A stretch of 64,000 bases of DNA from Saprospira grandis str. Lewin (GCF_000250635.1 NC_016940.1:1096995-1160994), one strand, 5' to 3'; shown: positions 622 through 64,000, numbered from the stretch's first letter. Program-made: numbers and translations. The notes: a model not told the origin generated them from the letters alone.

Positions 622-836
622 TTTTGGGGCGTTACTCCTTTCAGTCGTCGAACTGCAGACTAAAGTCTTTGTTGTCGCTGCGGCCTACAGCCTTGCGGCG
701 CTACGTTTACTCCCTACGGTCGTCGAACTGGCGCCCCTATAGGGGCTGGTTGTCGCAGCTCGCAGGTCTGCTCGGCCCTGCGGCGGCTTTGCCGCCTTGG
801 TCTGGCCTGACGGCCACTGCTGCACATCGCTAGGCC
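622..836 (+). repeat. GC-rich modular intergenic repeat, copy 1; long variant, forward orientation (ends ...ctgctgcacatcgctaggcc)
   Basis: Shares tttttggggc... head, ...gctcgcaggtctgctcggccctgcgg..., ggtctggcc and the terminal cacatcgctaggcc with the other copies. It carries an extra ggtcgtcgaactg module that is also present in the copies at 9695..9913 (reverse) and 56932..57192. Confidence 0.85.
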
Positions 837-871
837 AGCCCGCCCCTATTGGGGTTTTTTCACTCCAAAAA

Positions 872-2146
872 ATGCTCAATCCACCAATTATGCCTAAAAG
901 TCGACTCTTAGAAGCGCCAAAAAGCTTGGCTGGCGCCCAATACATTCAGCTCAACAGCTCCAAAAGCATCAGCAATCGCTTATTGATTATTCAGGCGATT
1001 ATGGGCCAATTGGCGCCCCCAAAAAGCTTATCTAGGGCCAAAGACAGCCAGAGCTTGGTCCGACTACTACAGCAAGAAGAAGAAGAAATACTAGATGCCG
1101 AAGATGCGGGGACCTGTTTTCGCTTTCTCACGGCCTACCTTTGTCTCAACAATAAAAAGCAAGTGCTCACGGGCTCGGCTCGGATGCTAGAGCGGCCCAT
1201 TGGCCCCTTGGTAGAAGCCCTGCGTAGCTTGGGCGCCCAAATTGACTACTTGGGCCAAGAGGGCTATCCCCCCTTGCAGATTGGGGCCTCTAGTTGGAAG
1301 GACACAGAAGAAATGCCTAGCTTGCGTATAGATGGCGGCATCAGCAGCCAGTATATTTCGGCCCTCTTGCTTATTGCCCCTGCCCTACCGCAGGGACTAA
1401 AACTGCAACTAGAGGGAGAGATCATTTCTATGCCCTACATTCAGATGACCTTAGGCCTAATGGAGCAGTTTGGCATCGACTATCTACAGGCGGGAAAAAG
1501 CTTTTTAATTGAGCCCCAAAGCTACCAAGCGCCCCAAGAAGAATTTATTGTAGAAGGCGACTGGTCCGCCGCGGCCTACTACTATGCCTTAGTGGCCTTG
1601 GCCGAGCCTGGATTTAGCCTAAAGCTAGGGCAATTGCGGGCCAATTCCTTACAGGGAGATTCCGTCATTGCCGAGCTGATGCAAAACTTGGGGGTAGTCA
1701 GTACATTTTTGCCCGAGGGAGAACTAGAACTCAAAAAAACAGCCCAGCCGCTGCCTAAGGAACTGCGCTATGATTGTCGGCACTATCCCGATTTGGCCCA
1801 AACCCTAATGGCCATATCGGCGGGACTAGCTATTCCCTGCCAGCTTTTTGGTCTACAGAGTTTGCGCATCAAAGAGACCGACCGTTTGGCGGCCATGAAA
1901 AACGAACTAGAAAAGCTGGGGGCAAGGGTAGAAATTGGAGAAGACTGGATGCACATTAAGTCGGGAGTAAAAAGAGCGCAAAAAAAGCCCTTAATTAGTA
2001 GTTACAAAGACCATCGGATGCTCATGTCCTTGGCCCCCTTATCGCTTTTGCTTGGTCCATTAAAAATGGAGCAGCCCGAAGTTGTGGCCAAATCCTATCC
2101 CGATTTTTGGAGAGATTTGGGCCAATTGGGCTTTAAAATTGGCTAA
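872..2146 (+). CDS. aroA: 3-phosphoshikimate 1-carboxyvinyltransferase (EPSP synthase)
   Basis: About 425 aa with AroA-typical blocks (LTGSARMLERPIGPLVEALRSLGA, DGGISSQYISALLLIAPAL, DHRMLMSLAPL). The ORF-track start at 797 lies inside repeat copy 1, so the start is moved to the ATG at 872 (MLNPPIMPKS...). Confidence 0.85.
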   Translation: MLNPPIMPKSRLLEAPKSLAGAQYIQLNSSKSISNRLLIIQAIMGQLAPPKSLSRAKDSQSLVRLLQQEEEEILDAEDAGTCFRFLTAYLCLNNKKQVLTGSARMLERPIGPLVEALRSLGAQIDYLGQEGYPPLQIGASSWKDTEEMPSLRIDGGISSQYISALLLIAPALPQGLKLQLEGEIISMPYIQMTLGLMEQFGIDYLQAGKSFLIEPQSYQAPQEEFIVEGDWSAAAYYYALVALAEPGFSLKLGQLRANSLQGDSVIAELMQNLGVVSTFLPEGELELKKTAQPLPKELRYDCRHYPDLAQTLMAISAGLAIPCQLFGLQSLRIKETDRLAAMKNELEKLGARVEIGEDWMHIKSGVKRAQKKPLISSYKDHRMLMSLAPLSLLLGPLKMEQPEVVAKSYPDFWRDLGQLGFKIG

Positions 2147-2208
2147 AAGCAGTAAGTTTTGGCCTTAAACCTCTAGTTTTGGGCCTTGTACCAAGCAGTT
2201 TATAAGAG

Positions 2209-4068: not shown

Positions 4069-4102
4069 GGCCAAGGTTCATTAAAGGCCCGGAGGGCCTT
4101 TG

Positions 4103-4223
4103 GCCTAGCGATGTGCAGCAGTGCGGCGCAGCCGCAGACCAAGGCCGTCAGGCCGCAGGGCCGAGCGAATAGCGAGCTGCGAAACGTAGCGCCGACGAGC
4201 GAAGCGAGGCGGAGGCCCCAAAA
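4103..4223 (-). repeat. GC-rich modular intergenic repeat, copy 2 (reverse orientation)
   Basis: ggcctagcgatgtgcagcag...ggccgagcgaatagcgagctgcgaaacgtagcgccgacgagcgaagcgaggcggaggccccaaaa. The first ~95 bp are identical to the copy at 58762..58898. Confidence 0.85.
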
Positions 4224-4271
4224 CAAAAAAGCCCCTACTTCATCAGTAGAGGCTATATTATTTAGTAGAGT

Positions 4272-8553: not shown

Positions 8554-8706
8554 ACCAATACATTTTATTATCCAAGTGAATCTAAACTAAAGATGCGCTA
8601 AACTTCTTCTATAAGAACAGGATGCACCGCTTTTCTTTTTGGTTGTTATCCAATCCCAAAATTACTAATTTGTAAGCATTTTATCGGCTTCAGTTATTTT
8701 TTTTGT

Positions 8707-8832
8707 TTTTTTGGGGCCTCCGCCTCGCTTCGCTCGTCGGCGCTACGTTTCAGGGCTCGCAGGTCTGCTCGGCCCTTCAGCGCTTGCAGCGCCTCGGTCT
8801 GGCCTTCGGCCACCCTTGCACATCGCTAGGCC
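8707..8832 (+). repeat. GC-rich modular intergenic repeat, copy 3 (forward; the most canonical copy)
   Basis: tttttggggcctccgcctcgcttcgctcgtcggcgctacgtttcagggctcgcaggtctgctcggcccttcagcgcttgcagcgcctcggtctggccttcggccacccttgcacatcgctaggcc. Confidence 0.85.
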
Positions 8833-8879
8833 AATTGGTCCCGCCTACCCTATCTTTTTAGCTAAAATCTTCTCCGATC

Positions 8880-9647: not shown

Positions 9648-9694
9648 AAAAAATTGGCCCAGGGCGAGTCGGCCCTTTGGCCGAAGGCCAAACG

Positions 9695-9913
9695 GCCTAG
9701 CGATGTGCAGCAGTGGCCCGCAGGGCCAGACCGAGCCAGCTTGCTGGCGAAGGGCCGAGCGAACAGCGAGCTGCGAAACGTAGCGCCGACGAGCGAAGCG
9801 AGGCGGAGGCCCAAAAACAGCAGCGAGCTGCGAAACGACAACAAGCCCTTTAGGGCGCAGTTCGACGACCAAAGGGAGTAACCGCCTGCCGAAGACAGGA
9901 GGCCCCAAAAAAA
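9695..9913 (-). repeat. GC-rich modular intergenic repeat, copy 4 (reverse, long variant with the extra module)
   Basis: ggcctagcgatgtgcagcagtggcc...gagcgaagcgaggcggaggcccaaaaacagcagcgagctgcgaaacgacaacaagccctttagggcgcagttcgacgaccaaagggagtaaccgcctgccgaagacaggaggccccaaaaaaa. Confidence 0.85.
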
Positions 9914-12767: not shown

Positions 12768-12800
12768 TAGCTACTGGAATCTATTTCAGTAGCTTTTTTA
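12768..12800 (+). terminator. Rho-independent terminator after the DUF4159 gene
   Basis: tagctactg-gaatctatttc-agtagct stem-loop followed by tttttta. Confidence 0.6.
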
Positions 12801-12948
12801 TTTGGGGCTGCCCCGCCCTGCGGGCGGGTCGGGCTGTCTCAGGGCTCGCAGGTCTGCTCGGCCCTTCAGCGGCTTTGCCGCTTCGGTCTGGCCTTCGGCC
12901 ACCCTTGCCCATCCCTCAGCCAGGGCGCTTCGCGCCCTCTAGGTCCAA
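12800..12948 (+). repeat. GC-rich modular intergenic repeat, copy 5 (forward, head variant B: gggctgccccgccctgcgggcgggtcgggctgt...)
   Basis: tttggggctgccccgccctgcgggcgggtcgggctgtctcagggctcgcaggtctgctcggcccttcagcggctttgccgcttcggtctggccttcggccacccttgcccatccctcagccagggcgcttcgcgccct. Confidence 0.85.
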
Positions 12949-12986
12949 AAAAAGGGCGAGCTAGATAAATCTAGCTCGCCCTTTTG
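12947..12986. terminator. Bidirectional terminator serving the TolC gene on the minus strand
   Basis: gggcgagctagat-aaat-ctagctcgccc 13-bp stem, with A7 on one side and ttttg on the other. Confidence 0.7.
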
Positions 12987-15975: not shown

Positions 15976-16605
15976 ATGAAAAAACCTTATGTTATAGGGA
16001 TTACCGGGGGAAGTGGCTCGGGCAAAACCACTTTTTTATCTGCTTTAGAACAAGAATTTGGCAAAGAGCAAATTTGTATCCTCTCGGCGGACCACTACTA
16101 CCGCCCCAGAGAAGAACAAAAAGCCGATGAACAGGGGGTCCTCAATTTTGACCTCCCCTCTTCCATCAATGCCGAAGAACTAGAGCGAGATGTCCGCCAG
16201 CTGATTGCAGGCCAAGATATAGAACGAAAGGAATATACCTTCAATAATCCTTTGGTCCAACCCAAAATGCTTAAATTTAAGGCGGCGCCCATCCTTATTT
16301 TAGAGGGTATTTTTGTCTTTCACTATCCTCAAGTCGCCGACCTGATCGACCTCAAGGTCTTTCTCTACACTAGCGAGTCTACGGCCCTTTCTCGCCGGAT
16401 CAAGCGGGACCGCATTGAGCGCAATTATCCCCTAGAAGATGTGCTTTACCGCTATGAGCATCATGTGATGCCCACCTACCGACAGTATATTGCGCCCATT
16501 AAGGAGCAGGCCGATTTGCTCATCAATAATAACCATAAGTTTGATGCTGGCCTTCAGGTCTTTAAGGGCTTTATCAATAATTATCTGCAAGAAGTAGAGG
16601 ATTAA
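15976..16605 (+). CDS. udk: Uridine kinase
   Basis: MKKPYVIGITGGSGSGKTTF P-loop start and ~209 aa. Start moved to the ATG at 15976. Confidence 0.8.
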   Translation: MKKPYVIGITGGSGSGKTTFLSALEQEFGKEQICILSADHYYRPREEQKADEQGVLNFDLPSSINAEELERDVRQLIAGQDIERKEYTFNNPLVQPKMLKFKAAPILILEGIFVFHYPQVADLIDLKVFLYTSESTALSRRIKRDRIERNYPLEDVLYRYEHHVMPTYRQYIAPIKEQADLLINNNHKFDAGLQVFKGFINNYLQEVED

Positions 16606-16608
16606 GTT

Positions 16609-16771
16609 TTTTTGGGGCCTGCGGGCCCCTTTTGCCTTGCTGCGCTGCGGCAAGGGCCCGCCGGGCTGTTGCGGGGCTCGCCGGGCTGTTGCGGGGCTCG
16701 CAGCGCTGCTCGGCCCTTCAGCGCTGCGCGCTTCGGTCTGGCCTGCGGCCACCCCTACACATCCCTAGGCC
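16609..16771 (+). repeat. GC-rich modular intergenic repeat, copy 6 (forward, with an internal 20-bp tandem duplication gccgggctgttgcggggctc x2)
   Basis: tttttggggcctgcgggcccc...gccgggctgttgcggggctcgccgggctgttgcggggctcgcagcgctgctcggcccttcagcgctgcgcgcttcggtctggcctgcggccacccctacacatccctaggcc. Confidence 0.85.
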
Positions 16772-16817
16772 GGGGCCATTTTTTTCAGGCTGCTCTTTAC
16801 TCCCCAACCCTTTGCCC

Positions 16818-18032: not shown

Positions 18033-18069
18033 GCGGGCCGAAGAACAGCCTTTAGCCTGAAAAAGGGAG

Positions 18070-18200
18070 ATGAGCGGCCCAGCGCTGCGCAGCGGTGGCC
18101 GCAGGCCAGACCCAGCGGGCGAAGCCCGCGCAGGGCCGAGCAGACCTGCGAGCCGCGGAGCATAGCGGCGGCCAGCGAAGCTGGCCGCGGGCCCCAAAAC
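18070..18200 (-). repeat. GC-rich modular intergenic repeat, copy 7 (reverse)
   Basis: cggcccagcgctgcgcagcggtggccgcaggccagaccc...gggccgagcagacctgcgagccgcggagcatagcggcggccagcgaagctggccgcgggccccaaaa. Confidence 0.85.
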
Positions 18201-18218
18201 CCAGTAATTATAAACAAA

Positions 18219-18956: not shown

Positions 18957-19000
18957 AAAAAAACCCGCTTTCTGCTTAGAGAAAGCGGGCTGTATTAAAG
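18957..19000 (-). promoter_or_regulatory. Terminator-like hairpin plus U7 tract abutting the phhA start codon (possible attenuator)
   Basis: On the minus strand the sequence reads aatacagcccgctttctctaagcagaaagcggg-ttttttt-ATG. The 10-bp stem is cccgctttct/agaaagcggg. Confidence 0.4.
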
Positions 19001-21872: not shown

Positions 21873-21877
21873 GCCTT

Positions 21878-23025: not shown

Positions 23026-23029
23026 CCCT

Positions 23030-25002: not shown

Positions 25003-25012
25003 CTTTTTTTTT

Positions 25013-25172
25013 ATTTTGGGGCTGCCCCGCCCTGCGGGCGGGTCGGGCTGTGTCAGGGCTCGCAGGTCTGCTCGGCCCTTCGCAAAAAAGCTGCGCTTTT
25101 TTGCTCGGTCTGGCCCTGCGGGCCACCCTTATCCATCCCTCAGCCGAGGGCCAGCCGCCAAGCGCTTTAGCC
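25013..25172 (+). repeat. GC-rich modular intergenic repeat, copy 8 (forward, head variant B)
   Basis: ttttggggctgccccgccctgcgggcgggtcgggctgtgtcagggctcgcaggtctgctcggcccttcgcaaaaaagctgcgcttttttgctcggtctggccctgcgggccacccttatccatccctcagcc... Confidence 0.85.
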
Positions 25173-25234
25173 TAAAATTTTTATCAAAGAAGGGCCAAAC
25201 AATTAATTAGATCATTGCGAAGCAATACCATTTT

Positions 25235-25359
25235 GGCCTAGCGATGTGCAGCAGTGGCCGTCAGGCCAGACCGAGCCGCTGAAAGCGGCGAAGGGCCGAG
25301 CGAACAGCGAGCTGCGAAACGTAGCGCCGCAAGGCGAAGCCGCAGCGGAGGCCCCAAAA
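25235..25359 (-). repeat. GC-rich modular intergenic repeat, copy 9 (reverse); forms an inverted pair with copy 8
   Basis: ggcctagcgatgtgcagcagtggccgtcaggccagaccgagccgctgaaagcggcgaagggccgagcgaacagcgagctgcgaaacgtagcgccgcaaggcgaagccgcagcggaggccccaaaa. Confidence 0.85.
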
Positions 25360-25363
25360 CATC

Positions 25364-28072
25364 CTAATCCTCCTGAGAAGAAGACAACAAACTGTTTTGC
25401 GCTTGTCGCTCTTGGCCAAAAGTCAGAATCTGCCGAATAAAATCGAAGGGCTGATAACCATTGATGGCCGTTTGGTGGAAGATGCAGGTGGCGGGCGTCA
25501 TGCCGGGCAAAGAATTGACCTCAATGACCAGGGTTTCGGCTCGGCCATCGGCATAAATGCGGACAAAAGCATCGATTCGGGCATAGCCCGTAACCCCCAA
25601 AATGCGGGCCGCCTGCTCTAAATCGGCCTTAATTTGGGCCGCCAAGGGCGCATATTCAAGTTCGCCAACAGCCAAGCGAGCAGGGGTAATATTTTGTCCC
25701 TCTCCCGCCAAAAACTTCTCTTCCAACGATAAAATCTCGCCAGAAGCCAAGGTTTCAGAAGGCTCAAAAACCTCATAGCGGATGCTTCCATCGGCCTCAT
25801 GATGACAAAGTAGGCCCACGGTCACCTCCAGAAAATGCAGGGCATCTTTTTGCTCCACCAACTGCTCTAAAAGGGCATATTGCTTTTGGGGAAACTCCTC
25901 TTTGGGCAAAATGGCTAGGCGCTCTTGGGCAATTTTTGGCAAAATATCCTCTTCACGGAAAAGGGCCGCCAAAAAGGCCTCCAATTCCGCCTCATTTTTG
26001 ATCTTTTTCACGGCAGAGCTACAGCCATCATCTACTGGCTTGGCAATCAGGGGCCAGCCTAGTTTTTCGCCTGCTTGCTGCAGACTTTGTTCAGGCTGGG
26101 CCAAATAATCGCTTTTGCTCAAAAGGATTTGCTCGGTCACGGGCAGGCCAGCGGCTTTCAGCTTTTGGAGACTTTGGTACTTATCAATCGTCAAGGCAGC
26201 AGAATCGGCCTCCGAACCATTAAAAGCGATGCCTCTTTTGGCCAACTCTCTTTGGAGCGCGCCATCCTCGCCGGGGCGGCCATGCAAAGCGATAAAGGCC
26301 AGACGGGTCTCCTCGCTTAATTCATCAAAAGAGAGCGAGCGGGGATCTAGGCGGCTACTTCGGCCAGAAAACTGATTAGCAATATGAGCCGTTTCTTGGC
26401 GAATCTTTTGGATAATGGGATGTACCTTATAATTTAATAATTTATCGCGAATATCGTCGGCATTATCCTTTAGCAAAAGGTTGATTGGTAATTCGTAGAG
26501 CTGTTGGTCCTCCGCCTTGCCCGTCAGGAAAACGGGAAAAGGCAGATAATCTGCAGAGCTGGCCAACTTCTCATAAATATTGCGGCCACTTTCTACCGAA
26601 ATATGGCGTTCGGAAGAATAACCGCCTAGAATAACCGCCACCTTTTGGAGTTCGGCAACCTCTCCTTCTAGGCGTTGCATCTCGCTTTCCAATCGGGCCA
26701 ATAATTGGCCATAATTATTGGGGCGCAGGCATTTTCGGCTGCGGGCCAAAAGCGAGCGATGAATAATAAAACTGAGAAAATGCGAGGGATTGAGGCCAAT
26801 TTCGGCCGCTTGATGGAAAAAGAAAGAAGAAGGCAGCATGCCCGAAGTCGTATTCGGATCATTGAGAATAATGCGGCCATCGGCTTGAATAAAACCATCG
26901 ATTCGGGCATAAACATCAAACTCCAAAAAGCGGAACAGCCGTTCGCACTCTTGGCGGATCGCTTGGATTTGGGCCTCGGGCAAATCAATAGGGGTTAACT
27001 TACGCGAGAGTCCAGCCAAATACTTAGAGCGATAATCAAAAAGCTCTTTGCCCTTGATAATTTCGGTGGGGGGCAAAGCAATGGCTTGGCCATCCTCATC
27101 TTGAATCACGACACAGGAAAACTCTCGGCCCTCAATAAAGCCCTCTAATAAAACGCTTTCCTCTCGGTATTGGCTTTGGAGTCGGAGCTTGGGGCTATGT
27201 CCCTGCCCCAATTCCTTATCGAGTAGGGCCAATAATTGCTCGGGATGATAGAGCAACTGTTTATCTTTTTTTGGGCCTTCCACCTCTAGCGGGAAGCCGA
27301 GGCCAGAGCGAATATCGAGCAATTTCCGCATCCATTGGATCTGCTCCTCTCGGCTCATTTGCTGCCAGTCTTCGGCGCTAATTTCGAGGCCAAAAAAGGC
27401 ATTTTCTAGGGCATCGAGAAGGTCTTCAGCCTGCTCGACAATACGCACACCGATAGAAGAACCTTGATTGGAAGGGCGGACCACCAAGGGGAAACCCATC
27501 TCTTTTTTGAGCTGCTCCAGATTGGGCAATTCGCCGCTCCAGTCTTTGGCCCAAATTTGTTGGATGGGAGGACTTTCAAAGCCGCCTGCCTGCATCATTT
27601 TCTTCTGGAAACTTTTGTCCATGCCCAGGCTACTCGCTCGGATGCCAGAGCCACTATAGGGAATCCCCAAAGCTTCTAACATCCCTTGAAGTTGACCATC
27701 TTCGCCCCATTCGCCATGCAGACTCAGAAAAGCAAAATCGATCAATTCGGGCAATTCGCTAAAGCTAATTGGGCGGCCAATTTGGGCCAGCAACTCCTTA
27801 GAGGCCTGCTTAGAAAGGCCTAGGCTTTCCACATAAATCTGAAAATGGTGTGGGCTAGGCGGCAGTGCCTCTACTGGGGGATAAAAATCTCGGATACTGC
27901 CCTTATAGAGATACTCCCAATCGAGTAGGCAGAGTTGGCCAAAACTATCCACAAAAATAGGGATGGGCCGAAAAAGTTGTTTATTTAAATTATCGTAGAC
28001 GGTCCGGCCACCTGCAAAGGCGATTTCGCGTTCTCGAGAGGGGCCAGCCAGAAATATTCCAATGTTCAACAT
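25364..28072 (-). CDS. Tandem double D-alanine--D-alanine ligase-like (ATP-grasp) protein, 902 aa
   Basis: Two complete Ddl-like modules. Module 1: MLNIGIFLAGPSREREIAFAGGRTVYDNL..., FLSLHGEWGEDGQLQGMLEALGIPYSGSG, FPLVVRPSNQGSSIGV, EFSCVVIQDEDGQAIALPPTEI, DYRSKYL. Module 2: VAVILGGYSSERHISVESGRNIYEKL, IALHGRPGEDGALQRELAKRGIAFNGSEADSAALTIDKYQ, WPLIAKPVDDGCSSAV, EVNSLPGMTPATCIFHQ. Confidence 0.7.
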   Translation of the reverse strand: MLNIGIFLAGPSREREIAFAGGRTVYDNLNKQLFRPIPIFVDSFGQLCLLDWEYLYKGSIRDFYPPVEALPPSPHHFQIYVESLGLSKQASKELLAQIGRPISFSELPELIDFAFLSLHGEWGEDGQLQGMLEALGIPYSGSGIRASSLGMDKSFQKKMMQAGGFESPPIQQIWAKDWSGELPNLEQLKKEMGFPLVVRPSNQGSSIGVRIVEQAEDLLDALENAFFGLEISAEDWQQMSREEQIQWMRKLLDIRSGLGFPLEVEGPKKDKQLLYHPEQLLALLDKELGQGHSPKLRLQSQYREESVLLEGFIEGREFSCVVIQDEDGQAIALPPTEIIKGKELFDYRSKYLAGLSRKLTPIDLPEAQIQAIRQECERLFRFLEFDVYARIDGFIQADGRIILNDPNTTSGMLPSSFFFHQAAEIGLNPSHFLSFIIHRSLLARSRKCLRPNNYGQLLARLESEMQRLEGEVAELQKVAVILGGYSSERHISVESGRNIYEKLASSADYLPFPVFLTGKAEDQQLYELPINLLLKDNADDIRDKLLNYKVHPIIQKIRQETAHIANQFSGRSSRLDPRSLSFDELSEETRLAFIALHGRPGEDGALQRELAKRGIAFNGSEADSAALTIDKYQSLQKLKAAGLPVTEQILLSKSDYLAQPEQSLQQAGEKLGWPLIAKPVDDGCSSAVKKIKNEAELEAFLAALFREEDILPKIAQERLAILPKEEFPQKQYALLEQLVEQKDALHFLEVTVGLLCHHEADGSIRYEVFEPSETLASGEILSLEEKFLAGEGQNITPARLAVGELEYAPLAAQIKADLEQAARILGVTGYARIDAFVRIYADGRAETLVIEVNSLPGMTPATCIFHQTAINGYQPFDFIRQILTFGQERQAQNSLLSSSQED

Positions 28073-32595: not shown

Positions 32596-32700
32596 TAACG
32601 GTGGCTGCAACATAAACCCTACAGCAAAAATGGTCCTGCGCTGCAAGGCGGTATAAATTGAGGGCCGAAGAAAATGGCCAAAAGAGAAAAAGACCGTTGA

Positions 32701-32827
32701 GCGGCTTAGCGCTGCGGAGCGGGTGGCCGCAGGCCAGACCAAGGCGGCTTGCCGCCGCAGGGCCGAGCAGACTTGCGAGCCCCGCAGCATAGCGCCCCGC
32801 CGCCTGCGGCGGCGGGGAAGCCCCAAA
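32701..32827 (-). repeat. GC-rich modular intergenic repeat, copy 11 (reverse); forms an inverted pair with copy 10
   Basis: gcggcttagcgctgcggagcgggtggccgcaggccagaccaaggcggcttgccgccgcagggccgagcagacttgcgagccccgcagcatagcgccccgccgcctgcggcggcggggaagccccaaa. Confidence 0.85.
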
Positions 32828-34192
32828 TTAGTCCCTATGAAAAGGAAGCAACCAACTGGGACTACTAAAAAGCGCTGCTTTTTCTTGGGCCAAATTGACC
32901 TGAGGATCTACCAAGCGCTGGCTAGGGCGGCCATTGAGGCTGACCTGAGCGTCTAGATAAACCTCTGGGTTTTGATAGCCTTCTTCTGTTTGGTAATAAT
33001 TGGCCAAATAATGGGCAAACTGCAAAAGCATATCAGGTTGATAGGCCATCATCAGCTCCTGTTTTTCATTGAGATGGTCCAGATTATTGACCCAGCTCAT
33101 TTTGCCCGTTTGGCCATCGACTACCTTAAACTGAGCATAGCCCCTTTTCTCGACCAGCATGACCATCCAAGAAAAGCGGAAGCCCTGTTCCTGCCAAAGG
33201 ACATTGCCCGCATAGAGATGATGTCGCAGCGGAAAAAGCGCCTGAAAAAGCAGAAAAGACAGCAAAAAATAGCGTTGAAAAGGGGGAAGAACGAGCTCTA
33301 GTTTTAATTTAGACAAAGTCAAATTAAAAATTTGAGCAAAGGTAGCAATTATTTTTTCATGAAAATGGCTAGAGAAAAAAATTGTGGTGCAGGCCATCAT
33401 CAGGTAGGGAAAAATGCCGATATAGAAGAGGGCGGCGGTGGCTAGGTGGAAGCAAATGACAAAAAAGTAGGCATATTTTCGGCTTTTGGACCAAAGGAGA
33501 AAAAAGCCAATACTGAGATCGAAGGCGGCGCCAAAACAGGCAAAAATGGGGGGCAGCCAGCTCTTGCAGAGGAGAGGGCCAAAGATTGGAAAATCGGATA
33601 GTTGGCCCAGCCAGATGCGCAGAGGTTGGGCTAAAACGAGCCAATCGCTTTGCAACTTGGCCAAGCCGGCAAAAAAATAGACCAGCACAAAAAGCAGTCG
33701 GGGCGTCCATATATATAGAGCGGGAACCTTGACCAAAGTCACCGAGATCGGATAATCTAGGGAAAAAGCGCGATGAGCGGGCAGGATCCAAAGCAGCAGG
33801 GCTAGCAAAGCGACCAGGTAGTAATGATTGAGATAATGCGTCAGGTCCAAAAGCTCTACATAAGTAAAGCAAGCAAAAAAAATCCCGGCAGAAAATTTAT
33901 ATTTATAGCCTAGGGCGATACCGAGGCCAGCGGCAGCCATCAAAAAAAAGCAGGCATAAAGGGCTGTTGCGGGCAATTCGGGCAGCCAATGCGTACCCCA
34001 AAGGCGGAAGGCAAACTGGGGTTGGATATAGAACTTATCGACCCAGCCGAGCAGCAGCATTCGCAGAGAGAGCCAGCAAGCGATCAGGCCAAAAATGATT
34101 CTGAGGCTAATGAGGGGGGCGATACTTTTGGGTTGGTCTAAAGCGAGCATAAGGATGAATTTTATGGGCGCAAAGGTAGACAATAGGCGCAA
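32828..34192 (-). CDS. Polytopic membrane protein, HTTM-domain-like (vitamin-K-dependent gamma-carboxylase-related)
   Basis: Multiple predicted TM helices over ~280 aa (…YIWTPRLLFVLVYFFAGLAKLQSDW…) followed by a soluble C-terminal domain. The assignment is from recalled family features only. Confidence 0.45.
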   Translation of the reverse strand: MRLLSTFAPIKFILMLALDQPKSIAPLISLRIIFGLIACWLSLRMLLLGWVDKFYIQPQFAFRLWGTHWLPELPATALYACFFLMAAAGLGIALGYKYKFSAGIFFACFTYVELLDLTHYLNHYYLVALLALLLWILPAHRAFSLDYPISVTLVKVPALYIWTPRLLFVLVYFFAGLAKLQSDWLVLAQPLRIWLGQLSDFPIFGPLLCKSWLPPIFACFGAAFDLSIGFFLLWSKSRKYAYFFVICFHLATAALFYIGIFPYLMMACTTIFFSSHFHEKIIATFAQIFNLTLSKLKLELVLPPFQRYFLLSFLLFQALFPLRHHLYAGNVLWQEQGFRFSWMVMLVEKRGYAQFKVVDGQTGKMSWVNNLDHLNEKQELMMAYQPDMLLQFAHYLANYYQTEEGYQNPEVYLDAQVSLNGRPSQRLVDPQVNLAQEKAALFSSPSWLLPFHRD

Positions 34193-36776: not shown

Positions 36777-36855
36777 CTATGGAACCAACTGCAGCGCAAA
36801 TATGGCAACTTTTAATCAATTGGCCAAATATTTTACCTACTTTTTTGAGCAAAGC

Positions 36856-37011
36856 CCCTCCCCCAGGCCCTATTGGCCCAGCGCTGCGGAGGGGTGGCCG
36901 AAGGCCAGACCAAAGCCGCCAAAGGCGGCTGCAGGGCCGAGCAGACCTGCGAGCCCCGCAGCATAGCGGCGGCCGAGCGAGGCGAAGCCGAGCCGGCCGC
37001 GGGCCCCAAAA
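36856..37011 (-). repeat. GC-rich modular intergenic repeat, copy 12 (reverse)
   Basis: cccagcgctgcggaggggtggccgaaggccagaccaaagccgccaaaggcggctgcagggccgagcagacctgcgagccccgcagcatagcggcggccgagcgaggcgaagccgagccggccgcgggccccaaaa. Confidence 0.85.
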
Positions 37012-37014
37012 TAA

Positions 37015-37560
37015 TTATCGAACAGAAGAACGAAATACCTGCTGGCCGTACTCCCAGAGAAATTTGAAGACCAAGAAAAAGAGGAAAAACGAAAGCCCAA
37101 TTTGCCAAAGCTTTTGAAAAGGAAGGACCATTTTGTGCATCAGCAAAAGGAGCAAACCCAGAGCCAAAGCAGCCGTGATGAGCAGTTCGTAGAGCTCGCC
37201 AAACCAAGGTAAGGCCTTCATTTTTAGGCCTTTTTTTCGGAGAATCATAAATACAATGACCGCCGAAATTAAGGGTAAATAATAGACGCTAAAACTTAGT
37301 TCTAATAGATTTTTTTGGTTCATCATGATGCTGTAGAGCCAAAACACCCCAGAAATAAGGGCCGGAATAGCCGTGCCATAAACCAAAGAGGAATACATAT
37401 AACCATAGGCGCTAGAAGCTGGCGATGGCCCCGAAATAATATTGAGCAATAAAGCCATAAATGGCAACAGCAAAAAGTAAAAGAAGAGGGCCACGGGGTC
37501 CTGATGAAGCAAGGCAATGAGTTCTTCGATCTGCATAATTTTGGGAATGGATTTTGGCAA
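37015..37560 (-). CDS. Hypothetical integral membrane protein
   Basis: Five or more hydrophobic helices (LLLPFMALLLNII...; AIPALISGVFWLYSIMM...; LPLISAVIVFMIL...; LITAALALGLLLLLM...; IGLSFFLFFLVF). No family recognised. Confidence 0.45.
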   Translation of the reverse strand: MPKSIPKIMQIEELIALLHQDPVALFFYFLLLPFMALLLNIISGPSPASSAYGYMYSSLVYGTAIPALISGVFWLYSIMMNQKNLLELSFSVYYLPLISAVIVFMILRKKGLKMKALPWFGELYELLITAALALGLLLLLMHKMVLPFQKLWQIGLSFFLFFLVFKFLWEYGQQVFRSSVR

Positions 37561-39120: not shown

Positions 39121-39210
39121 CTGCCGCAAGTTTAGCCCCAGAAAAGAACTATTTTGATTTAGTCTTGTTAACTTTGCGCCTCCAAGAGGAAAAAACTAAT
39201 CCTGCCGATC

Positions 39211-39370
39211 TTTTGGGGCCTCAGCTGCGCTGCGCTTGCTGCGCTACGTTTCGGGGCTCGCAGGCTTGCTCGGCCCTTCAGTGCTGCGCACTTCGGTCTG
39301 GCCTGACGGCCACCCCTACACATCGCTAGGCCATCTGGCCTGACGGCCAAGGCGGCTGCGCCGCCTATCC
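39211..39370 (+). repeat. GC-rich modular intergenic repeat, copy 13 (forward, with a 3' extension)
   Basis: ttttggggcctcagctgcgctgcgcttgctgcgctacgtttcggggctcgcaggcttgctcggcccttcagtgctgcgcacttcggtctggcctgacggccacccctacacatcgctaggcc + atctggcctgacggccaaggcggctgcgccgcc. Confidence 0.85.
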
Positions 39371-39405
39371 ATTCATACCACAAAAAATATTTGATCCGCT
39401 ACAAT

Positions 39406-41074: not shown

Positions 41075-41113
41075 AAAAGGCCCAGAACTCGATGTTCTGG
41101 GCCTTTCTTTTGG
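41075..41113 (+). terminator. Rho-independent terminator after the COG0523 gene
   Basis: ggcccagaac-tcgat-gttctgggcc 10-bp stem followed by tttcttttgg. Confidence 0.7.
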
Positions 41114-41117
41114 ATGG

Positions 41118-41267
41118 AGCAGGGCGCGAAGCGCCCGCAGGCTGAGCTGCCGAAGCAGGGCCGCCGAAGGCGGCAGACCAAAGCGCTGAAAGCGCTGCAG
41201 GGCCGAGCAAACCTGCGAGCTGCGAAGTGGAGCGACCCGACCAAAGGAAGGGGCAGCCCCAAAAAAA
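41118..41267 (-). repeat. GC-rich modular intergenic repeat, copy 14 (reverse, variant B)
   Basis: cagggcgcgaagcgcccgcaggctgagctgccgaagcagggccgccgaaggcggcagaccaaagcgctgaaagcgctgcagggccgagcaaacctgcgagctgcgaagtggagcgacccgaccaaaggaaggggcagccccaaaaaaa. Confidence 0.85.
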
Positions 41268-42681: not shown

Positions 42682-42832
42682 TTTTTTTGGGGCTGCCCCA
42701 GCCTTTGGCTGGGTCGGGCTGTATCGCAGCTCGCTATTCGCTCGGCCCTGCGCTTTTTCGCTAGGCTCAAAAGCTAGGTCTGGCCTTCGGCCACTGCTGT
42801 CCATCCCTCAGCCTGCGGGCGCTTCGCGCCCT
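42682..42832 (+). repeat. GC-rich modular intergenic repeat, copy 15 (forward, variant B)
   Basis: ttttttttggggctgccccagcctttggctgggtcgggctgtatcgcagctcgctattcgctcggccctgcgctttttcgctaggctcaaaagctaggtctggccttcggccactgctgtccatccctcagcctgcgggcgcttcgcgccctg. Confidence 0.85.
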
Positions 42833-42852
42833 GTCCCCTGCAATTGGACCAA

Positions 42853-43752: not shown

Positions 43753-43756
43753 TGCG

Positions 43757-44152: not shown

Positions 44153-44221
44153 TTTCTTAGTTATCATTGGTAGAAGCGAAAGATAAGGAAGTTGAGGCAA
44201 GCTGCAAAAGTTTTTGGTCCA

Positions 44222-44402
44222 GATAGGCGGCGAAGCCGCCTGCGAGCGAAGCGAGCCATGGCCCAGCGCTGCGCAGCCGTGGCCCGAAGGGCCAGACCCA
44301 GTTTTTTGAGCGCAGCGAAAAAAACGCAGGGCCGAGCAGACCTGCGAGCGGCGCAGCATAGCGGCGGCCGCCCCAAATTGAAGGGCGGCCGCGGGCCCCA
44401 AA
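44222..44402 (-). repeat. GC-rich modular intergenic repeat, copy 16 (reverse, long)
   Basis: gataggcggcgaagccgcctgcgagcgaagcgagccatggcccagcgctgcgcagccgtggcccgaagggccagacccag...gggccgagcagacctgcgagcggcgcagcatagcggcggccgccccaaattgaagggcggccgcgggccccaaagc. Confidence 0.85.
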
Positions 44403-44435
44403 GCAAAAAAAAGAGGACCGTAGTCCTCCCTTTTC

Positions 44436-48648: not shown

Positions 48649-48671
48649 TTTATAACTTTATTTTGATCTAG

Positions 48672-48806
48672 TTTTGGGGCTGCCCCTTCCTATGGTCGGG
48701 TCGGGCTGTGTCGTGGCTCGCAGGTCTGCTCGGCCCTGCAGTTTTTTCGCTACGCTCAAAAACTTGGGTCTGCGGCTGCGCCGCACCACTTTCCATCCCT
48801 CAGCCA
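48672..48806 (+). repeat. GC-rich modular intergenic repeat, copy 17 (forward, variant B); a detached fragment lies at ~48961..48995
   Basis: ttttggggctgccccttcctatggtcgggtcgggctgtgtcgtggctcgcaggtctgctcggccctgcagttttttcgctacgctcaaaaacttgggtctgcggctgcgccgcaccactttccatccctcagcc. Further on, cctgcgggcgcttcgcgccctgc appears again. Confidence 0.8.
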
Positions 48807-49027
48807 GATTTAATCGCGCTGCTTTGGCCATAGTTTGCTATGAATTTTCTGCTAGGCCAGCTATTTTTTAAGGACATAGCCTTCGCTATGGCCGAGAAAA
48901 ATAGGGCCGACTAGCGGGAAATTGCTGCAAACTATAAAAGTGAGTGCGCTTAAATTTGGCTATTACCTGCGGGCGCTTCGCGCCCTGCTAAACGCAAATT
49001 ATCTCCTTTTGGACCAAATTTCCATTT

Positions 49028-49744: not shown

Positions 49745-49757
49745 ATTGCGCTTTAGC

Positions 49758-49783
49758 TCGAGGCCTGAAGGGCCTCTTTTTTG
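49758..49783 (+). terminator. Rho-independent terminator after recO
   Basis: gaggcc-tgaa-ggcctc stem followed by T6. Confidence 0.6.
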
Positions 49784-49900
49784 GCCTAGCGATGCGGCGG
49801 GGTGGCCGTCAGGCCAGACCAAGGAGCCGCAGGCGACGAAGGGCCGAGCAAGCCTGCGAGCCCCAAAGCGTAGCGCCCGCCGAAGGCGGGAGGCCCCAAA
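49783..49900 (-). repeat. GC-rich modular intergenic repeat, copy 18 (reverse)
   Basis: ggcctagcgatgcggcggggtggccgtcaggccagaccaaggagccgcaggcgacgaagggccgagcaagcctgcgagccccaaagcgtagcgcccgccgaaggcgggaggccccaaaa. Confidence 0.85.
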
Positions 49901-49904
49901 ACAG

Positions 49905-50660
49905 TCAATGTCCCCTTTTTTCCATAAGGATCACATAGCGCATAAATACGCCCCAGGCCAGTAATTTGCAGACGATAAAGCCCACTTTGCCGTCGCGGAA
50001 GCCCTGTTGGATGATGTAGTGCTTGAAGAAGCGGAAAGCGGGTTTGAGGTAGAGGTGAAAGAAGCCCACTTTTGGGGTTTTGCTGGCATAATCGCCGGCG
50101 GACCAATGGGCGTAGCGCTCCATTTTGGCCATAAAATGGCGCATACTTTTGAAGGTATAGTGCAAAAGGCGGCCCTTTAGCCAAGCGACTTTTCCCTTAG
50201 TGATAATTTCGGCATGTACCTCTTTTTCTTCATAGCGGCAAAGGTCGCGTTTAAAAAAGCGGATGACGGCATCATTTTGCCAGCCTGAAAAGCGGACCGC
50301 CTGTCCCATAAAATGGTTATCGCGGCCCATCCAGTAGGCAATAGGTCCTTGGGGGTCTTCGGCTTGGCTCATAATGGCCTTAATTTCGGCGACTAGATTT
50401 TCGCTAGGGCGTTCATCGGCATCTAGCAGCAGGATCCATTCATTTTTGGCTTGGGGAATCGCCCAATTTTTCTGGCTAGCCGAATTGCCATATTCTCTTT
50501 GAATAATTCGGGCGCCGGCTTTTTGGGCCAGGGCCAAGGTATCATCCGTACTAAAAGAATCGACGACCAGCAGCTCATCGGCCCAGCTGACCAAAGGCAA
50601 TAACTCTCGGAGATTATCGGCTTCGTTGAAAGTGGGAATCAGTACAGTAAGCGGGCGCAT
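49905..50660 (-). CDS. Family 2 glycosyltransferase
   Basis: VLIPTFNEADNLRELLP...VVDSFSTDDTLALAQ and the DAD motif region (LLLDADERPS). ~250 aa. Confidence 0.75.
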   Translation of the reverse strand: MRPLTVLIPTFNEADNLRELLPLVSWADELLVVDSFSTDDTLALAQKAGARIIQREYGNSASQKNWAIPQAKNEWILLLDADERPSENLVAEIKAIMSQAEDPQGPIAYWMGRDNHFMGQAVRFSGWQNDAVIRFFKRDLCRYEEKEVHAEIITKGKVAWLKGRLLHYTFKSMRHFMAKMERYAHWSAGDYASKTPKVGFFHLYLKPAFRFFKHYIIQQGFRDGKVGFIVCKLLAWGVFMRYVILMEKRGH

Positions 50661-56754: not shown

Positions 56755-56931
56755 CTGACTTCTTTATAATAAAAAGAGGGAACGTTTTCACGGTTCCCTC
56801 GCTCAATGCGTTTTGCTGCCACAAATATAAGCATTTATCTTTAGCTTTTTGGACTTTCTCCAGATTTGTTAGCCCAGCCCCCATTTTTTCCAGCTCCTCT
56901 CCCCTCCTTTCTACTGCCTCAATTTCTGCTG

Positions 56932-57192
56932 TTTTGGGGCCTCCCGCCTGCGGCGGGCGGTTACTCCCTTTGGTCGTCGAACTGCGAACTAAAGTTCTTG
57001 TTGTCGTTTATTCTCTTTGGTCATCGAACTGGCGCCCCTATAGGGGCTTGTTGTCGCAGCTCGCTGCTATTTTGGGGCCTCCGCCTCCCTTCGGTCGTCG
57101 GCGCTACGTTCCGCAGCTCGCTATTCGCTCGGCCCTTCGCCAGCTTCGCTGGCTCGGTCTGGCCTACGGCCACTGCTGCACATCGCTAGGCC
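56932..57192 (+). repeat. GC-rich modular intergenic repeat, copy 19 (forward; composite of two heads plus the extra module)
   Basis: ttttggggcctcccgcctgcggcgggcggttactccctttggtcgtcgaactgcgaactaaagttcttgttgtcg...ggtcatcgaactggcgcccctataggggcttgttgtcgcagctcgctgctattttggggcctccgcctcccttcggtcgtcggcgctacgttccgcagctcgctattcgctcggccc...ctgctgcacatcgctaggcc. Confidence 0.85.
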
Positions 57193-57225
57193 TGTGGCCC
57201 TTCGGGCCTGTAGGACGAAAAAGTT

Positions 57226-58448: not shown

Positions 58449-58760
58449 CGGCCTAGGGACATATATCTCCTCATCTATTATCTCATCTCTACCCCTAGGG
58501 CCAAGGCCCTAGGGGCATGTATCTCCTCATCTATTATCTCTGCGCCTAGGGACAAGCCCCTAGGCTAGCTTTTTTAGACAGCCCTCTAAAGAGGGCCTCC
58601 AGATAAGGCCCTTCTCTACAATAACTCCTTACTTAAATAAGCTAGTTGATAGACATCTAAGCGCTTACCTAAACTTAGGTAAGCTAATTGACAGAGATCT
58701 AATGGCTTACTCCAATTGGGATGCCCTAATTGACAGAGATCAAGGCCTTTAGGCGATTTA
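58449..58760. repeat. Local direct-repeat block: a 33-bp unit x2 (cctaggg(a/g)cat(a/g)tatctcctcatctattatctc) with CCCTAGGGCC/GGCCCTAGGG palindromes, then a 42-bp periodic direct repeat x3 (ctaattgacagagatc... at ~58642, 58684, 58726)
   Basis: Directly visible. Copy 1 at 58451-58483 and copy 2 at 58509-58541. The three 42-bp units contain ctagttgatagacatctaagcgcttac, ctaattgacagagatctaatggcttac and ctaattgacagagatcaaggccttta, with the inverted repeats cttacctaaacttaggtaag and ccaattgg in the spacers. Confidence 0.8.
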
Positions 58761-58761
58761 G

Positions 58762-58898
58762 CAGGCGGCGAAGCCGCCGCAGGCCTAGCGATGTGCAGCA
58801 GTGCGGCGCAGCCGCAGACCAAGGCCGTCAGGCCGCAGGGCCGAGCGAATAGCGAGCTGCGAAACGTAGCGCCCGCCGAAGGCGGGAGGCCCCAAAAA
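58762..58898 (-). repeat. GC-rich modular intergenic repeat, copy 20 (reverse; near-identical to copy 2)
   Basis: ggcctagcgatgtgcagcagtgcggcgcagccgcagaccaaggccgtcaggccgcagggccgagcgaatagcgagctgcgaaacgtagcgcccgccgaaggcgggaggccccaaaaaaa. Confidence 0.85.
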
Positions 58899-58957
58899 AA
58901 CAAAAAAGGAGCAGTAAAAAATTACTACTCCTTTTGTATGCTATTGTGCCCAAGCCA

Positions 58958-62312: not shown

Positions 62313-62693
62313 ATGCAAAGCAAATTATTTCTATTTAGCTTTTTTCTATCTCTTCCCTTTTCGCTACTGGCCCAGAGCATCCAGCTGGTAGATGGTCCTG
62401 CGCCCGAACAGCCCTATGCGGAATTAGTGGCCGAAAGCTGGGATGAGCAAGGCGCCAATTTTGAAATCCTCATTGAGAACAAAGGAAAGGCGATGCTCCA
62501 AATTGATAGCATCGCCCTGAGTTGCGATTGTTTGACTTTGCGGCCTTATCATAACATTCCCTTGCCAGAAGATGGCCGCCGCCGCTTTTTTATTCAGTAT
62601 AAAGGTCCCAAAAAACCTTTTGATTTAATGGCCATTATTTATAGCAATGCCAAAAATCACCCCGCCTATTGGCTGCGCCTAAAACAGGACTAG
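62313..62693 (+). CDS. DUF1573 domain-containing secreted protein
   Basis: Signal peptide. ~125 aa with FEILIENKGKAMLQIDSIALSCDCLTLRP resembling DUF1573 as recalled. Confidence 0.55.
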   Translation: MQSKLFLFSFFLSLPFSLLAQSIQLVDGPAPEQPYAELVAESWDEQGANFEILIENKGKAMLQIDSIALSCDCLTLRPYHNIPLPEDGRRRFFIQYKGPKKPFDLMAIIYSNAKNHPAYWLRLKQD

Positions 62694-63841
62694 TCTACAG
62701 TCTCTTTAGGGTAAAGCGAGCGCTGAATCACTTTCTCATAATAGGCCTCGTACTGAGGCAGTATATTTTCTATCGAAAACTTTTTGGCATGTTCTAAGGC
62801 CGCCTTCTGAAACTTCTGATGTAGGGTTTCATCCTTGAGCAACTTAATGGCATTGGCGGCCATTTCATCCACCTCGCCCAAATCGGAGCAAAAGCCCGTC
62901 ACTCCATGCAAATTGACTTCGGGCAAACCGCCCACATTGGTCGAAATTACGGGAACCTCACAGGCCATAGCCTCTAGGGCCGAAAGGCCAAAACTCTCAC
63001 TAGCCGAAGGCATAATAAAGAGGTCCGAAACGGCCAACAACTCTTCTACCGCATCTTGCTTACCCAAAAAGCGAATATCTGCACAAAGGCCCAATTCTCT
63101 ACACAATTGCTCTAGTTTTTGCCGCTCTGGCCCATCGCCAACCAACAGTAGCTTGGCAGGCAACTCGGCCCGAACCTGCGCAAAAATCTTGACCACATCC
63201 TCTACCCGCTTTACCTTGCGAAAATTAGAAATGTGAATCAGTATTTTTTCGCCATGAGGCGCAATCGCTTTGCGAAAATGCTCTTTGTTCGAGCGCTTAA
63301 ATCGGTCAAAATCAATGAAGTTATAAATGACCTCAATCTCTTGGTCCACCTCAAAGTTGGCATAAGTATCCTGTCGCAAACTATCCGATACCGCCGTTAC
63401 CCCATCCGATTTATTGATCGCAAAACTGACCACTGGCTCATAAACGGGCTGCTTGCCCACCAGCGTAATATCGGTCCCATGCAAGGTCGTCACGGTGGGA
63501 ATATAGATCCCTTCTTGCAGCAATATTTTCTTGGCCATATAAGCCACCGAAGCATGCGGCACCGCATAATGCACATGCAAAACGTCTAGTTGGTCATATT
63601 TGACCACATCCACCAACTTAGAGGCCAGGGCCGTTTCATAAGGCGGATAATCAAAAAGAGGATAGTCTGCAAAACGAACCTCATTATAGACAATATTCTC
63701 ATGAAACCCATCCAAACGAGCCGGAGGAGCATAGGTAATAAAATGAACTTTATGGCCTCTATCGGCTAGGCCTTTGCCCAATTCTGTGGCAACAACACCG
63801 CTACCTCCATAGGTAGGATAACAAACAATTCCTATTTTCAT
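62690..63841 (-). CDS. bshA: N-acetyl-alpha-D-glucosaminyl L-malate synthase BshA (GT4 glycosyltransferase, bacillithiol biosynthesis)
   Basis: MKIGIVCYPTYGGSGVVATELGKGLADRGHKVHFITY N-terminus characteristic of BshA, and a GT4 C-terminal domain (E...LPEVN...G). Confidence 0.75.
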   Translation of the reverse strand: MKIGIVCYPTYGGSGVVATELGKGLADRGHKVHFITYAPPARLDGFHENIVYNEVRFADYPLFDYPPYETALASKLVDVVKYDQLDVLHVHYAVPHASVAYMAKKILLQEGIYIPTVTTLHGTDITLVGKQPVYEPVVSFAINKSDGVTAVSDSLRQDTYANFEVDQEIEVIYNFIDFDRFKRSNKEHFRKAIAPHGEKILIHISNFRKVKRVEDVVKIFAQVRAELPAKLLLVGDGPERQKLEQLCRELGLCADIRFLGKQDAVEELLAVSDLFIMPSASESFGLSALEAMACEVPVISTNVGGLPEVNLHGVTGFCSDLGEVDEMAANAIKLLKDETLHQKFQKAALEHAKKFSIENILPQYEAYYEKVIQRSLYPKETVD

Positions 63842-63941
63842 AATGACGCTTCTGTATGCTTTGGCCTCAAGATAAGGCCCGACTTATAATAAACAAAAGC
63901 CCTAAAAGGTTTTTAAGTGATGTTTAAGCCTATTCTGCTGT

Positions 63942-64000
63942 TTTGGGGCCTCCGCTGCGGCTTCGCCTTGCGGCGCTACGTTACAGGGCTCGCTCTTCGC
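63942..64000 (+). repeat. GC-rich modular intergenic repeat, copy 21 (forward, cut by the window end)
   Basis: ttttggggcctccgctgcggcttcgccttgcggcgctacgttacagggctcgctcttcgc. Confidence 0.8.

Follow-up and report, generated by a model that had tools for sequence, protein, structure and literature searches.

The hallmarks of repeats of the repetitive extragenic palindromic (REP) type are a GTAG tag, inverted dimers and heterodimers (PMC3733652), and for the Bacteroidetes Quentin et al. described a phylum-specific transposase subclass, TnpA-Y1 subclass 2.6, flanked by atypical secondary structures that have copies elsewhere in the genome (PMC6006769). Analysis of a 64,000-nucleotide stretch of Saprospira grandis str. 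Lewin (GCF_000250635.1 NC_016940.1:1096995-1160994; hereafter the window) revealed that it carries, at 21 loci designated E1 to E21, copies of an apparently undescribed family of GC-rich intergenic repeats, whose basic unit of about 120 nt has a predicted branched fold with strong covariation and whose sites are shared by all Saprospira lineages compared. The 21 loci, identified by a combination of GC-island scan, repeat finding and direct reading, are all intergenic and lie on both strands (T-run first on the plus strand at 11 loci and on the minus strand at 10), together covering 3,856 of 64,000 bases. The abundant, dispersed, two-strand repeat family recorded in a first-pass annotation of this DNA was thereby confirmed, with its share of the window corrected from about 5% to 6.0%; the core sequence given there, GCTCGCAGGTCTGCTCGGCCC, yielded 13 window matches at up to three mismatches and none in 100 shuffled sequences. 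Comparison of the window with 956 kb of loci from S. grandis DSM 2844 gave matches only at the elements and at one short repeat (58539-58631), showing that the element boundaries are sharp.

The family is not confined to this region, being found genome-wide in S. grandis DSM 2844 and WH, in Saprospira sp. CCB-QB6 (hereafter QB6) and in a metagenomic Saprospira relative (44% GC, 85-89% identical to Lewin). Among the matches listed, over 120 genome-collection loci contained the exact core, nearly all from S. grandis DSM 2844 with a few from metagenome-assembled genomes (MAGs) of Lewinellaceae; so did over 120 contigs from metagenomes, nearly all belonging to a single sample, the one that contains this metagenomic relative. 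Overall, 696 cores were counted in the DNA examined, and anchored regular expressions recovered between 270 and 512 full units. In loci picked irrespective of the element the density was one per 3-5 kb, which by extrapolation would amount to some 900-1,400 copies per 4.2-4.4-Mb genome. No element was seen in the syntenic loci examined from the nearest non-Saprospira relatives (about 79% protein identity, 38-42% GC), whose dipeptidase is 79% identical in amino acids. Two core matches, in L033 (a hit in a MAG labelled 'Gammaproteobacteria') and in L188 (a 74%-GC metagenome hit), look like chance occurrences, both lying in very GC-rich, apparently coding DNA where the other element motifs are missing. 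At gathering thresholds Rfam 15 recognized only a tRNA in the window, its matches to the element regions at E<=5 were at chance level, and the literature search found no description of the Saprospira family.

Read with the T-run first, the basic unit comprises a T-run of 2-9 bases, GG, the 5' strand of a 5-bp closing helix P1 (GGCxy), a first hairpin slot (H1), a subfamily-specific linker, the 5' strand of a 4-bp helix P2 (xxxG), whose G doubles as the first base of the unpaired core, the core itself, hairpin H2, the motif GGTCTG, whose TG opens hairpin H3 and is matched by a closing CA, the 3' strand of P2 (Cxxx), a second linker, the 3' strand of P1 (y'x'GCC) and usually at least one further hairpin. 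In Saprospira units the T-run always abuts the head. The core has the consensus GCTCGC-N5/6-GCTCGGCCC and appears in the unit as GCTCGC-N5/6-GCTCGGCCCT followed by H2; a second variant reads GCTCGC-TATTC-GCTCGGCCC. Core and P2 form two cassettes, one combining a 6-nt AGGTCT-like spacer with P2 xGGG and the other a 5-nt TATTC-like spacer with P2 GCAG/CTGC, and with either spacer the two half-sites are held 11-12 bp apart. At least four subfamilies (A, B, C and D) differ in head, linkers and tail; every module listed in the first-pass annotation exists, but the two heads it described have to be extended to these four or more subfamilies and to the second core variant.

Conserved secondary structure across copies, which the first-pass annotation had made a test of any RNA-level function, was found in several comparisons. 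Among 268 distinct full units the variable pairs of P1 were CT/AG in 113, TG/CA in 91, CC/GG in 34 and TT/AA in 10, so that 248 of 268 were Watson-Crick, compared with a mean of 92 and a maximum of 115 in shuffles. For P2, in a test anchored solely by distance from H3, the second and third pairs were Watson-Crick in 181 units out of 182, and three pair types were seen at either position. RNAalifold applied to 19 window units found P2, H2 and H3 independently, and also proposed a GGCC/GGTC helix under H2 and linker-linker pairs that switch from C-G to G-C by subfamily. Finally, in a structure-neutral, gap-free alignment built from fixed-offset pieces beside invariant anchors (100 sequences, 83 columns), 92.6% of pair cells could pair, against 74.7% in shuffles (0 of 500 as high) and 34-59% with slid partners; the covariation score was 0.44 versus 0.13, double-sided changes occurred at 15 of 26 pairs, and one-sided G-U changes were nearly nil (0-4 per pair in 100 sequences). 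The modelled structure shown by these comparisons is one in which a single strand of the basic unit folds into a branched form, P1, P2 and three hairpin slots being arranged round the unpaired invariant core, to which GGTCTG also belongs. For the 5' strand of P2 a second pairing is available, AGGGC/GCCCT or CGCAG/CTGCG with the core's 3' end, that would leave only the core enclosed; judged from sequence, this alternative (window 12841-12865 and equivalents) is a possible two-state switch.

Accessory modules, extra hairpins among them, are combined with the units. The 'extra ~90-bp module' reported earlier does exist, but proved to consist of one to three copies of a module of about 47 nt, named X (GTTACTCC..GGTCGTCGAACTG-hairpin-TTGTTGT), which always takes the place of CTA in CGCTAC of the head linker or in CGCTAG of the tail, is repeatable and forms 105-nt tandem arrays (L107 7250-7560). 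These CGCTAC/CGCTAG tags have the appearance of hot spots for recombination or cleavage. Another module, AT-richer and about 190 nt long, has 17 matches in the loci examined, often beside type-B tails; the copy next to E17 is present in Lewin and QB6 and missing in WH and DSM 2844, a distribution out of step with strain relatedness. A different, 76-nt insert of three hairpins (ATGAGGGTT..AACCCTCAT, GTATCGCTTCGCAAAGCGATAC and GGGTT..AACCC) sits in the H1 loop or replaces the middle of the unit in some strains only (L125 of WH, ~17,400-17,480; the QB6 orthologues of E14 and E16 in L138). It has about 30 copies in the loci examined and none in the window, and is a truly polymorphic miniature element.

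Neighbouring units are nearly always arranged tail to tail. Among units no more than 450 nt apart, 71 pairs were tail-to-tail with T-runs outward (median spacer about 120 nt), three were tandem and two head-to-head. The pairs are heterodimers, homodimers accounting for 11% against 32% expected and B-B pairs being absent. On the GGCC->AAAA strand, type-A units carry GTAG immediately before H1 (...AACGTAGCGCC-H1), type C has ATAG at this position and type B neither.

Orthologous loci of 21-49 kb from WH, DSM 2844 and QB6, together with metagenome contig L207, were compared with the window. Every element with mappable flanks was found at the identical site in each lineage covered, with no empty orthologous site in the loci from the four other lineages and no insertion polymorphism across the five, so that the presence/absence differences between strains that the first-pass annotation had suggested looking for did not appear, and the insertions predate these lineages. 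When Lewin was compared with QB6, 468 of 504 positions (92.9%) of the scaffold (P1, linkers, core and tail) proved identical, against 75.3% for the third codon positions in ten genes nearby, and the hairpin slots were 47% (H1), 64% (H2) and 78% (H3) identical. Orthologous copies differ by whole parts with pairing kept, through compensatory changes and cassette swaps: H1 of E18 occurs in three forms among four strains, with the other P2/core cassette in QB6; P2 of E12 is GGGG/CCCC in one genome and GCGG/CCGC in another; and an A-T pair in H2 of E10 is G-C in QB6. Over about 150 nt E14 and E20 do not differ between Lewin and QB6, E14 being 100% identical to the QB6 copy. As the replacement hairpins are drawn from a pool found at other loci, recombination or gene conversion between copies, combined with a requirement for pairing, would be the simplest reading. 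Beyond Saprospira, six copies were recovered from two Lewinellaceae MAGs (56-62% GC), with a different head (GGGCGTG), a different tail (CAGGCACCTCACGC) and no T-run; they have in common with Saprospira the design of conserved linkers plus co-varying hairpins, and the core in both spacer variants. This search demanded the exact core, so that core identity in the five copies with the AGGTCT spacer is partly due to selection, whereas the TATTC variant turned up unselected.

As the first-pass annotation had stated, no window copy lies within a real gene: the apparent cases inside open reading frames (ORFs) are either stop-to-stop frames composed of element DNA or real genes extended on their 5' side, which also substantiates its warning of spurious ORFs. 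Within the window the T-run side frequently borders on a gene's 3' end, and a rule of orientation relative to genes was considered, but the bias of 14 to 7 vanished in 168 units with two flanking ORFs, among which the four gene contexts were nearly equal (49/44/43/32). A position close to terminators, also claimed earlier, applies to several window copies and is not a rule. True terminators of neighbouring genes lie just outside several copies, several are located between the terminators of convergent genes, and some (E14) directly follow a stop codon with no terminator between. Heads directly after a terminator-like hairpin numbered 24 of 270 (9%), compared with 5.4% for all T-runs, and insertion at terminator U-tracts was rejected on these figures. 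The element itself is not supported as a transcription terminator, the role once proposed for it, because its own hairpins have no T-run 3' of them.

As to which strand folds, and whether as RNA or as DNA, the strands hardly differed in mean minimum free energy (MFE; -60.3 and -61.2 kcal/mol), and G-U versus A-C asymmetry was uninformative as a strand indicator, the helices being almost purely Watson-Crick; such helices are more in keeping with DNA, or with a copying mechanism, than with a typical RNA family. The 107 unique H2 hairpins included 21 tandem mismatches, all of them T.C/C.T on the T-run-first strand, corresponding to sheared tandem G.A on the opposite one. The folding z-score was better on the 5'-GGCC...GCCCC-AAAA-3' strand in four of four units, and the MFE fold of that strand reproduced the co-varying helices. 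Tandem G.A and z-scores, as weaker clues, favour the GGCC->AAAA strand.

Our leading interpretation, for which the chances seem to us evenly balanced, is that the Saprospira units represent a new, unusually complex mosaic of the REP/BIME class (BIME, bacterial interspersed mosaic element), produced by an old expansion as single-stranded DNA through a structure-specific enzyme and subsequently fixed and homogenized by recombination. On this view the expansion would have taken place ahead of the split of the Saprospira lineages, probably in the form of folded single-stranded DNA acted on by a structure-specific enzyme, encoded in a single copy, that would read the invariant core and hairpins; the candidate that suggests itself is a RAYT-like HUH/Y1 transposase, because Bacteroidetes have their own subclass with atypical flanking structures. 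Since then the copies would have been immobile, inter-copy recombination or gene conversion keeping them alike and exchanging hairpins and P2/core cassettes within the limit that every helix remain Watson-Crick, and any effects on neighbouring genes, such as an exonuclease barrier in read-through transcripts or insulation, would be an orientation-independent by-product. Several observations weigh against this interpretation. The unit is not a simple 20-40-nt palindrome, and GTAG is restricted to type A, type C having ATAG instead and type B lacking such a motif. Neither the HUH-Y1 signature, sought by regular expression, nor a phmmer hit to IS200/IS608 TnpA was found in about 2.1 Mb of Saprospira-like DNA, a weak negative because this is only part of the genomes and the phmmer queries were entered by hand; all-against-all ORF clustering likewise revealed no multicopy protein family accompanying the elements (Rhs-like and IS5-like paralogues only). 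As no transposition event was seen across the five lineages, mobility is deduced from copy number and dispersal only. Moreover, a scaffold conserved beyond the neutral rate and a core common to another bacterial family could equally mean a host function. Along these lines it is possible, although doubtful, that the units, rather than being REP-like passengers, are a sequence- and structure-specific recognition element belonging to a new class of structured RNA or folded single-stranded DNA, whose invariant core would be read by a protein. Such an element, kept at about a thousand fixed sites, shared with Lewinellaceae and with its hairpin slots actively rewritten, would constitute a host-integrated system without described counterpart.

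More specific versions of a host function fare less well. A cis-acting or stand-alone structured RNA, either part of an untranslated region or with its own promoter, in which fold and core bind a protein or protect transcripts, is unlikely. Its functional strand would be 5'-GGCC...GCCCC-AAAA-3', in agreement with the better z-scores, the reproduced MFE fold and the G.A mismatches of that strand, and it would account for the strong helix covariation, the conservation of the scaffold above the neutral rate and copies directly after a stop codon such as E14. The structured small RNA family suggested in the first-pass annotation is conceivable, but weakened by the nearly random orientation to flanking genes, the near absence of G-U pairs and the lack of an Rfam match. 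The copies between terminators of convergent genes and the equal mean MFE of the two strands count further against an RNA, and an RNA gene would not readily account for inverted heterodimers. We regard as more improbable still a host element acting as DNA, in which the GCTCGC-N5/6-GCTCGG direct repeat, its half-sites about one helical turn apart, would bind a nucleoid, topology or recombination protein and the palindromes would extrude as cruciforms organizing or insulating chromosome domains. Binding of gyrase and IHF has been proposed for BIMEs. The invariance of the core across subfamilies, species and Lewinellaceae MAGs, the constant half-site distance with 5- or 6-nt spacers, strict Watson-Crick pairing symmetric between strands and the stable positions at roughly regular spacing (about 3 kb) are consistent with this model, but the long-range, branch-enclosing P1 and P2 are not expected of simple cruciforms, no candidate protein is known and the fast turnover of hairpins is left unexplained.

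Mobile elements of classical types are the least probable explanations. The first-pass annotation had considered a mobilisable miniature element, and small size, lack of coding capacity, dispersal in high copy number and short terminal complementarity co-varying by subfamily do recall a MITE (miniature inverted-repeat transposable element), a deletion derivative of an insertion sequence moved by a DDE transposase. This origin is largely refuted: the terminal complementarity extends over only 5 bp (GGCxy / y'x'GCC) instead of a terminal inverted repeat (TIR) of about 10 bp or more, the best-conserved part is internal rather than terminal, there is no target-site duplication (TSD), the T-run being on the head side only with GC-rich hairpin DNA beyond the tail, no multicopy transposase shares the ends, and none of the five lineages has an empty orthologous site. 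Equally remote is a retroelement resembling short interspersed nuclear elements (SINEs), in which a GGCC->AAAA RNA with a variable A tail would be inserted by target-primed reverse transcription at T-runs. The variable T-run (2-9) always abutting the head would suit it, as would the better folding and the G.A motifs of that strand, but T-runs also stand between units inside arrays and are missing from the Lewinellaceae relatives, target-site duplications and insertion polymorphism are lacking, and no reverse transcriptase was seen near the elements.

The coordinates of all window loci are collected in Table 1. The genes among which they lie belong to ordinary housekeeping chromosome (IF-2, NusA, RimP, Ddl, a TonB receptor and peptidases), and eight of the encoded proteins match entries for strain Lewin without any difference (AFC23827-AFC23867).

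Table 1. Elements and modules in the 64-kb window of S. grandis str. Lewin (positions counted from the first base of the window; + and -, strand on which the T-run comes first)
Feature	Position	Strand	Description
E1, composite	622..856	+	Head broken by two X modules (~631-682, 704-760)
E1, remainder		+	Core 758-778, then H2, H3, type-A tail ending 836, then 3' hairpin
E2, type-A unit (4102-4223)	4081..4230	-	P2 GCAG/CTGC; core spacer TATTC; between terminators of two convergent genes
E3, type-A unit (8706-8832)	8702..8851	+	P2 AGGG/CCCT
E4, composite	9654..9913	-	Partial head with one X (~9831-9882) joined to full unit (9694-9817)
E5, exemplar type-B unit	12789..12951	+	T-run 12794-12803; P1 5' GGCTG 12806-12810; H1 12812-12828
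E5, middle			P2 5' AGGG 12841-12844; core 12844-12865; H2 12868-12882; GGTCTG 12885-12890; H3 12889-12901
E5, end			P2 3' CCCT 12902-12905; P1 3' CAGCC 12917-12921; extra hairpin H4 12922-12938
E6, unit (16607-16771)	16604..16784	+	Enlarged H1 region, duplicated linker
E7, type-C unit (18076-18199)	18046..18212	-	P2 GCGG/CCGC
E8, type-B unit (25014-25145)	25007..25175	+	Left half of tail-to-tail heterodimer with E9
E9, type-A unit (25235-25359)	25234..25365	-	Right half of heterodimer with E8
E10, type-B unit (32439-32574)	32441..32612	+	Left half of tail-to-tail heterodimer with E11
E11, type-D unit (32703-32827)	32686..32843	-	P1 TT/AA
E12, type-C unit (36875-37011)	36840..37027	-	Adjoins tRNA gene 36713-36786
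E13, type-A unit (39211-39332) and 3' hairpins	39201..39373	+	
E14, type-B-like unit (41140-41267)	41097..41262	-	Directly after dipeptidase stop codon
E15, type-B unit (42681-42813)	42687..42852	+	
E16, type-C unit (44260-44402) and 3' hairpins	44210..44421	-	
E17, type-B unit (48672-48805)	48665..48810	+	P2 GTGG/CCAC
Accessory module, ~190 nt, AT-richer	48811..48997	+	Joined exactly at E17 tail end
E18, type-A unit (49783-49901)	49755..49917	-	
E19, composite	56926..57219	+	Partial head with two X joined to full type-A unit (57070-57192)
E20, type-A unit (58782-58900)	58749..58905	-	Identical to E2 over 92 nt
E21, type-A head	63934..64000	+	Cut by window end
Module X copies	631-682, 704-760, 9831-9882, ~56955-57050		

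Some further features of the window lie outside the elements. The short stretch at 58539-58631, outside E20, matches five other loci and constitutes a further minor repeat. A perfect 11-nt tandem repeat, ATTTAAACGGG, is present in about nine copies at 20730-20828, intergenic before an ORF at 21066, and is unrelated to the GC-rich family. Three segments (18200-25233, 35494-36548 and 42700-43757) have no collinear counterpart in QB6; the second holds two small ORFs beside the tRNA gene 36713-36786, and in the third a 317-aa ORF of Lewin is replaced in QB6 by a RidA-family gene.

If the window is typical, about one base in 17 of the genome belongs to one structured repeat family, which would be among the highest loads reported for bacteria. 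The combination of properties is rare: dimer rules like those of REP and BIME, a complex fold with clean covariation, a core common to bacterial families, positions that have not moved across some 25% synonymous divergence, and hairpins whose changes outpace those of neutral sites while pairing is always kept. The family offers a test bed for how such repeats, whether selfish, domesticated or functional, persist outside Proteobacteria. In practical terms, short-read assemblies are broken by the elements, and Saprospira annotations acquire false N-terminal extensions as well as spurious ORFs. Such breaks were seen in Saprospira short-read assemblies among the Logan contigs, L121 included, a 3.9-kb contig ending inside E5 and E6.

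Compared with known systems, the Saprospira family has most in common with the REP/BIME elements of Enterobacteria and the REPINs of Pseudomonas (PMC3733652, PMC3116915), with which it shares hundreds of extragenic GC-rich palindromic copies, mosaics with other short motifs, a preference for inverted dimers and heterodimers with avoidance of tandem ones, vertical inheritance with long persistence and, in its commonest subfamily though not in types B and C, GTAG beside one hairpin. It differs from the single 20-40-nt hairpin of REP in its multi-helix fold of about 120 nt with long-range co-varying helices and an unpaired invariant 21-nt core, and from both REP and REPIN in its tail-to-tail dimers with spacers of about 120 nt, its density (about one copy every 3 kb, or 6% of the window), its host, a member of the Bacteroidota, and the absence of any RAYT found so far in the ~2.1 Mb examined. 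Like BOX of Streptococcus pneumoniae (boxA-boxB(n)-boxC) and ERIC/IRU, it is intergenic, consists of interchangeable boxes with a stable predicted structure and has variants with extra modules at fixed internal sites; however, there is no sequence similarity, and in BOX and ERIC the terminal inverted repeats are longer and strains are polymorphic for insertions, whereas the Saprospira sites are fixed and it is the hairpins within units that turn over. With NIME and dRS3 of Neisseria (CGTC-type REPs) it shares short palindromes delimiting exchangeable segments and arrays shaped by inter-copy recombination, but its architecture differs, it has no CGTC tag and no role in phage integration is evident. 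TnpA-Y1 subclass 2.6 (PMC6006769) belongs to the same phylum, and its flanking 'atypical secondary structures' are as expected of a mobiliser of the units; it is a lead only, no such gene having been found in the Saprospira-like DNA examined. IS200/IS605-derived, PATE-like elements insert 3' of a fixed short target, have subterminal hairpins but neither TIR nor TSD, follow the replication direction in their orientation and come with a TnpA; the Saprospira head is always preceded by a T-run and likewise lacks TIR and TSD, but a single 64-kb stretch holds both orientations, 11 to 10, and the ~2.1 Mb examined yielded no TnpA. An integron attC or CRISPR array was rejected in view of the two orientations, the housekeeping flanking genes (IF-2, NusA, Ddl) and the irregular spacing. 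The kinship with REP/BIME suggested in the first-pass annotation has gained strength from the genome-wide occurrence in several species, the conserved fold and the inverted heterodimers, and although its unit size and architecture fail the definition of a simple REP, the family is best filed beside REP/BIME/REPIN.

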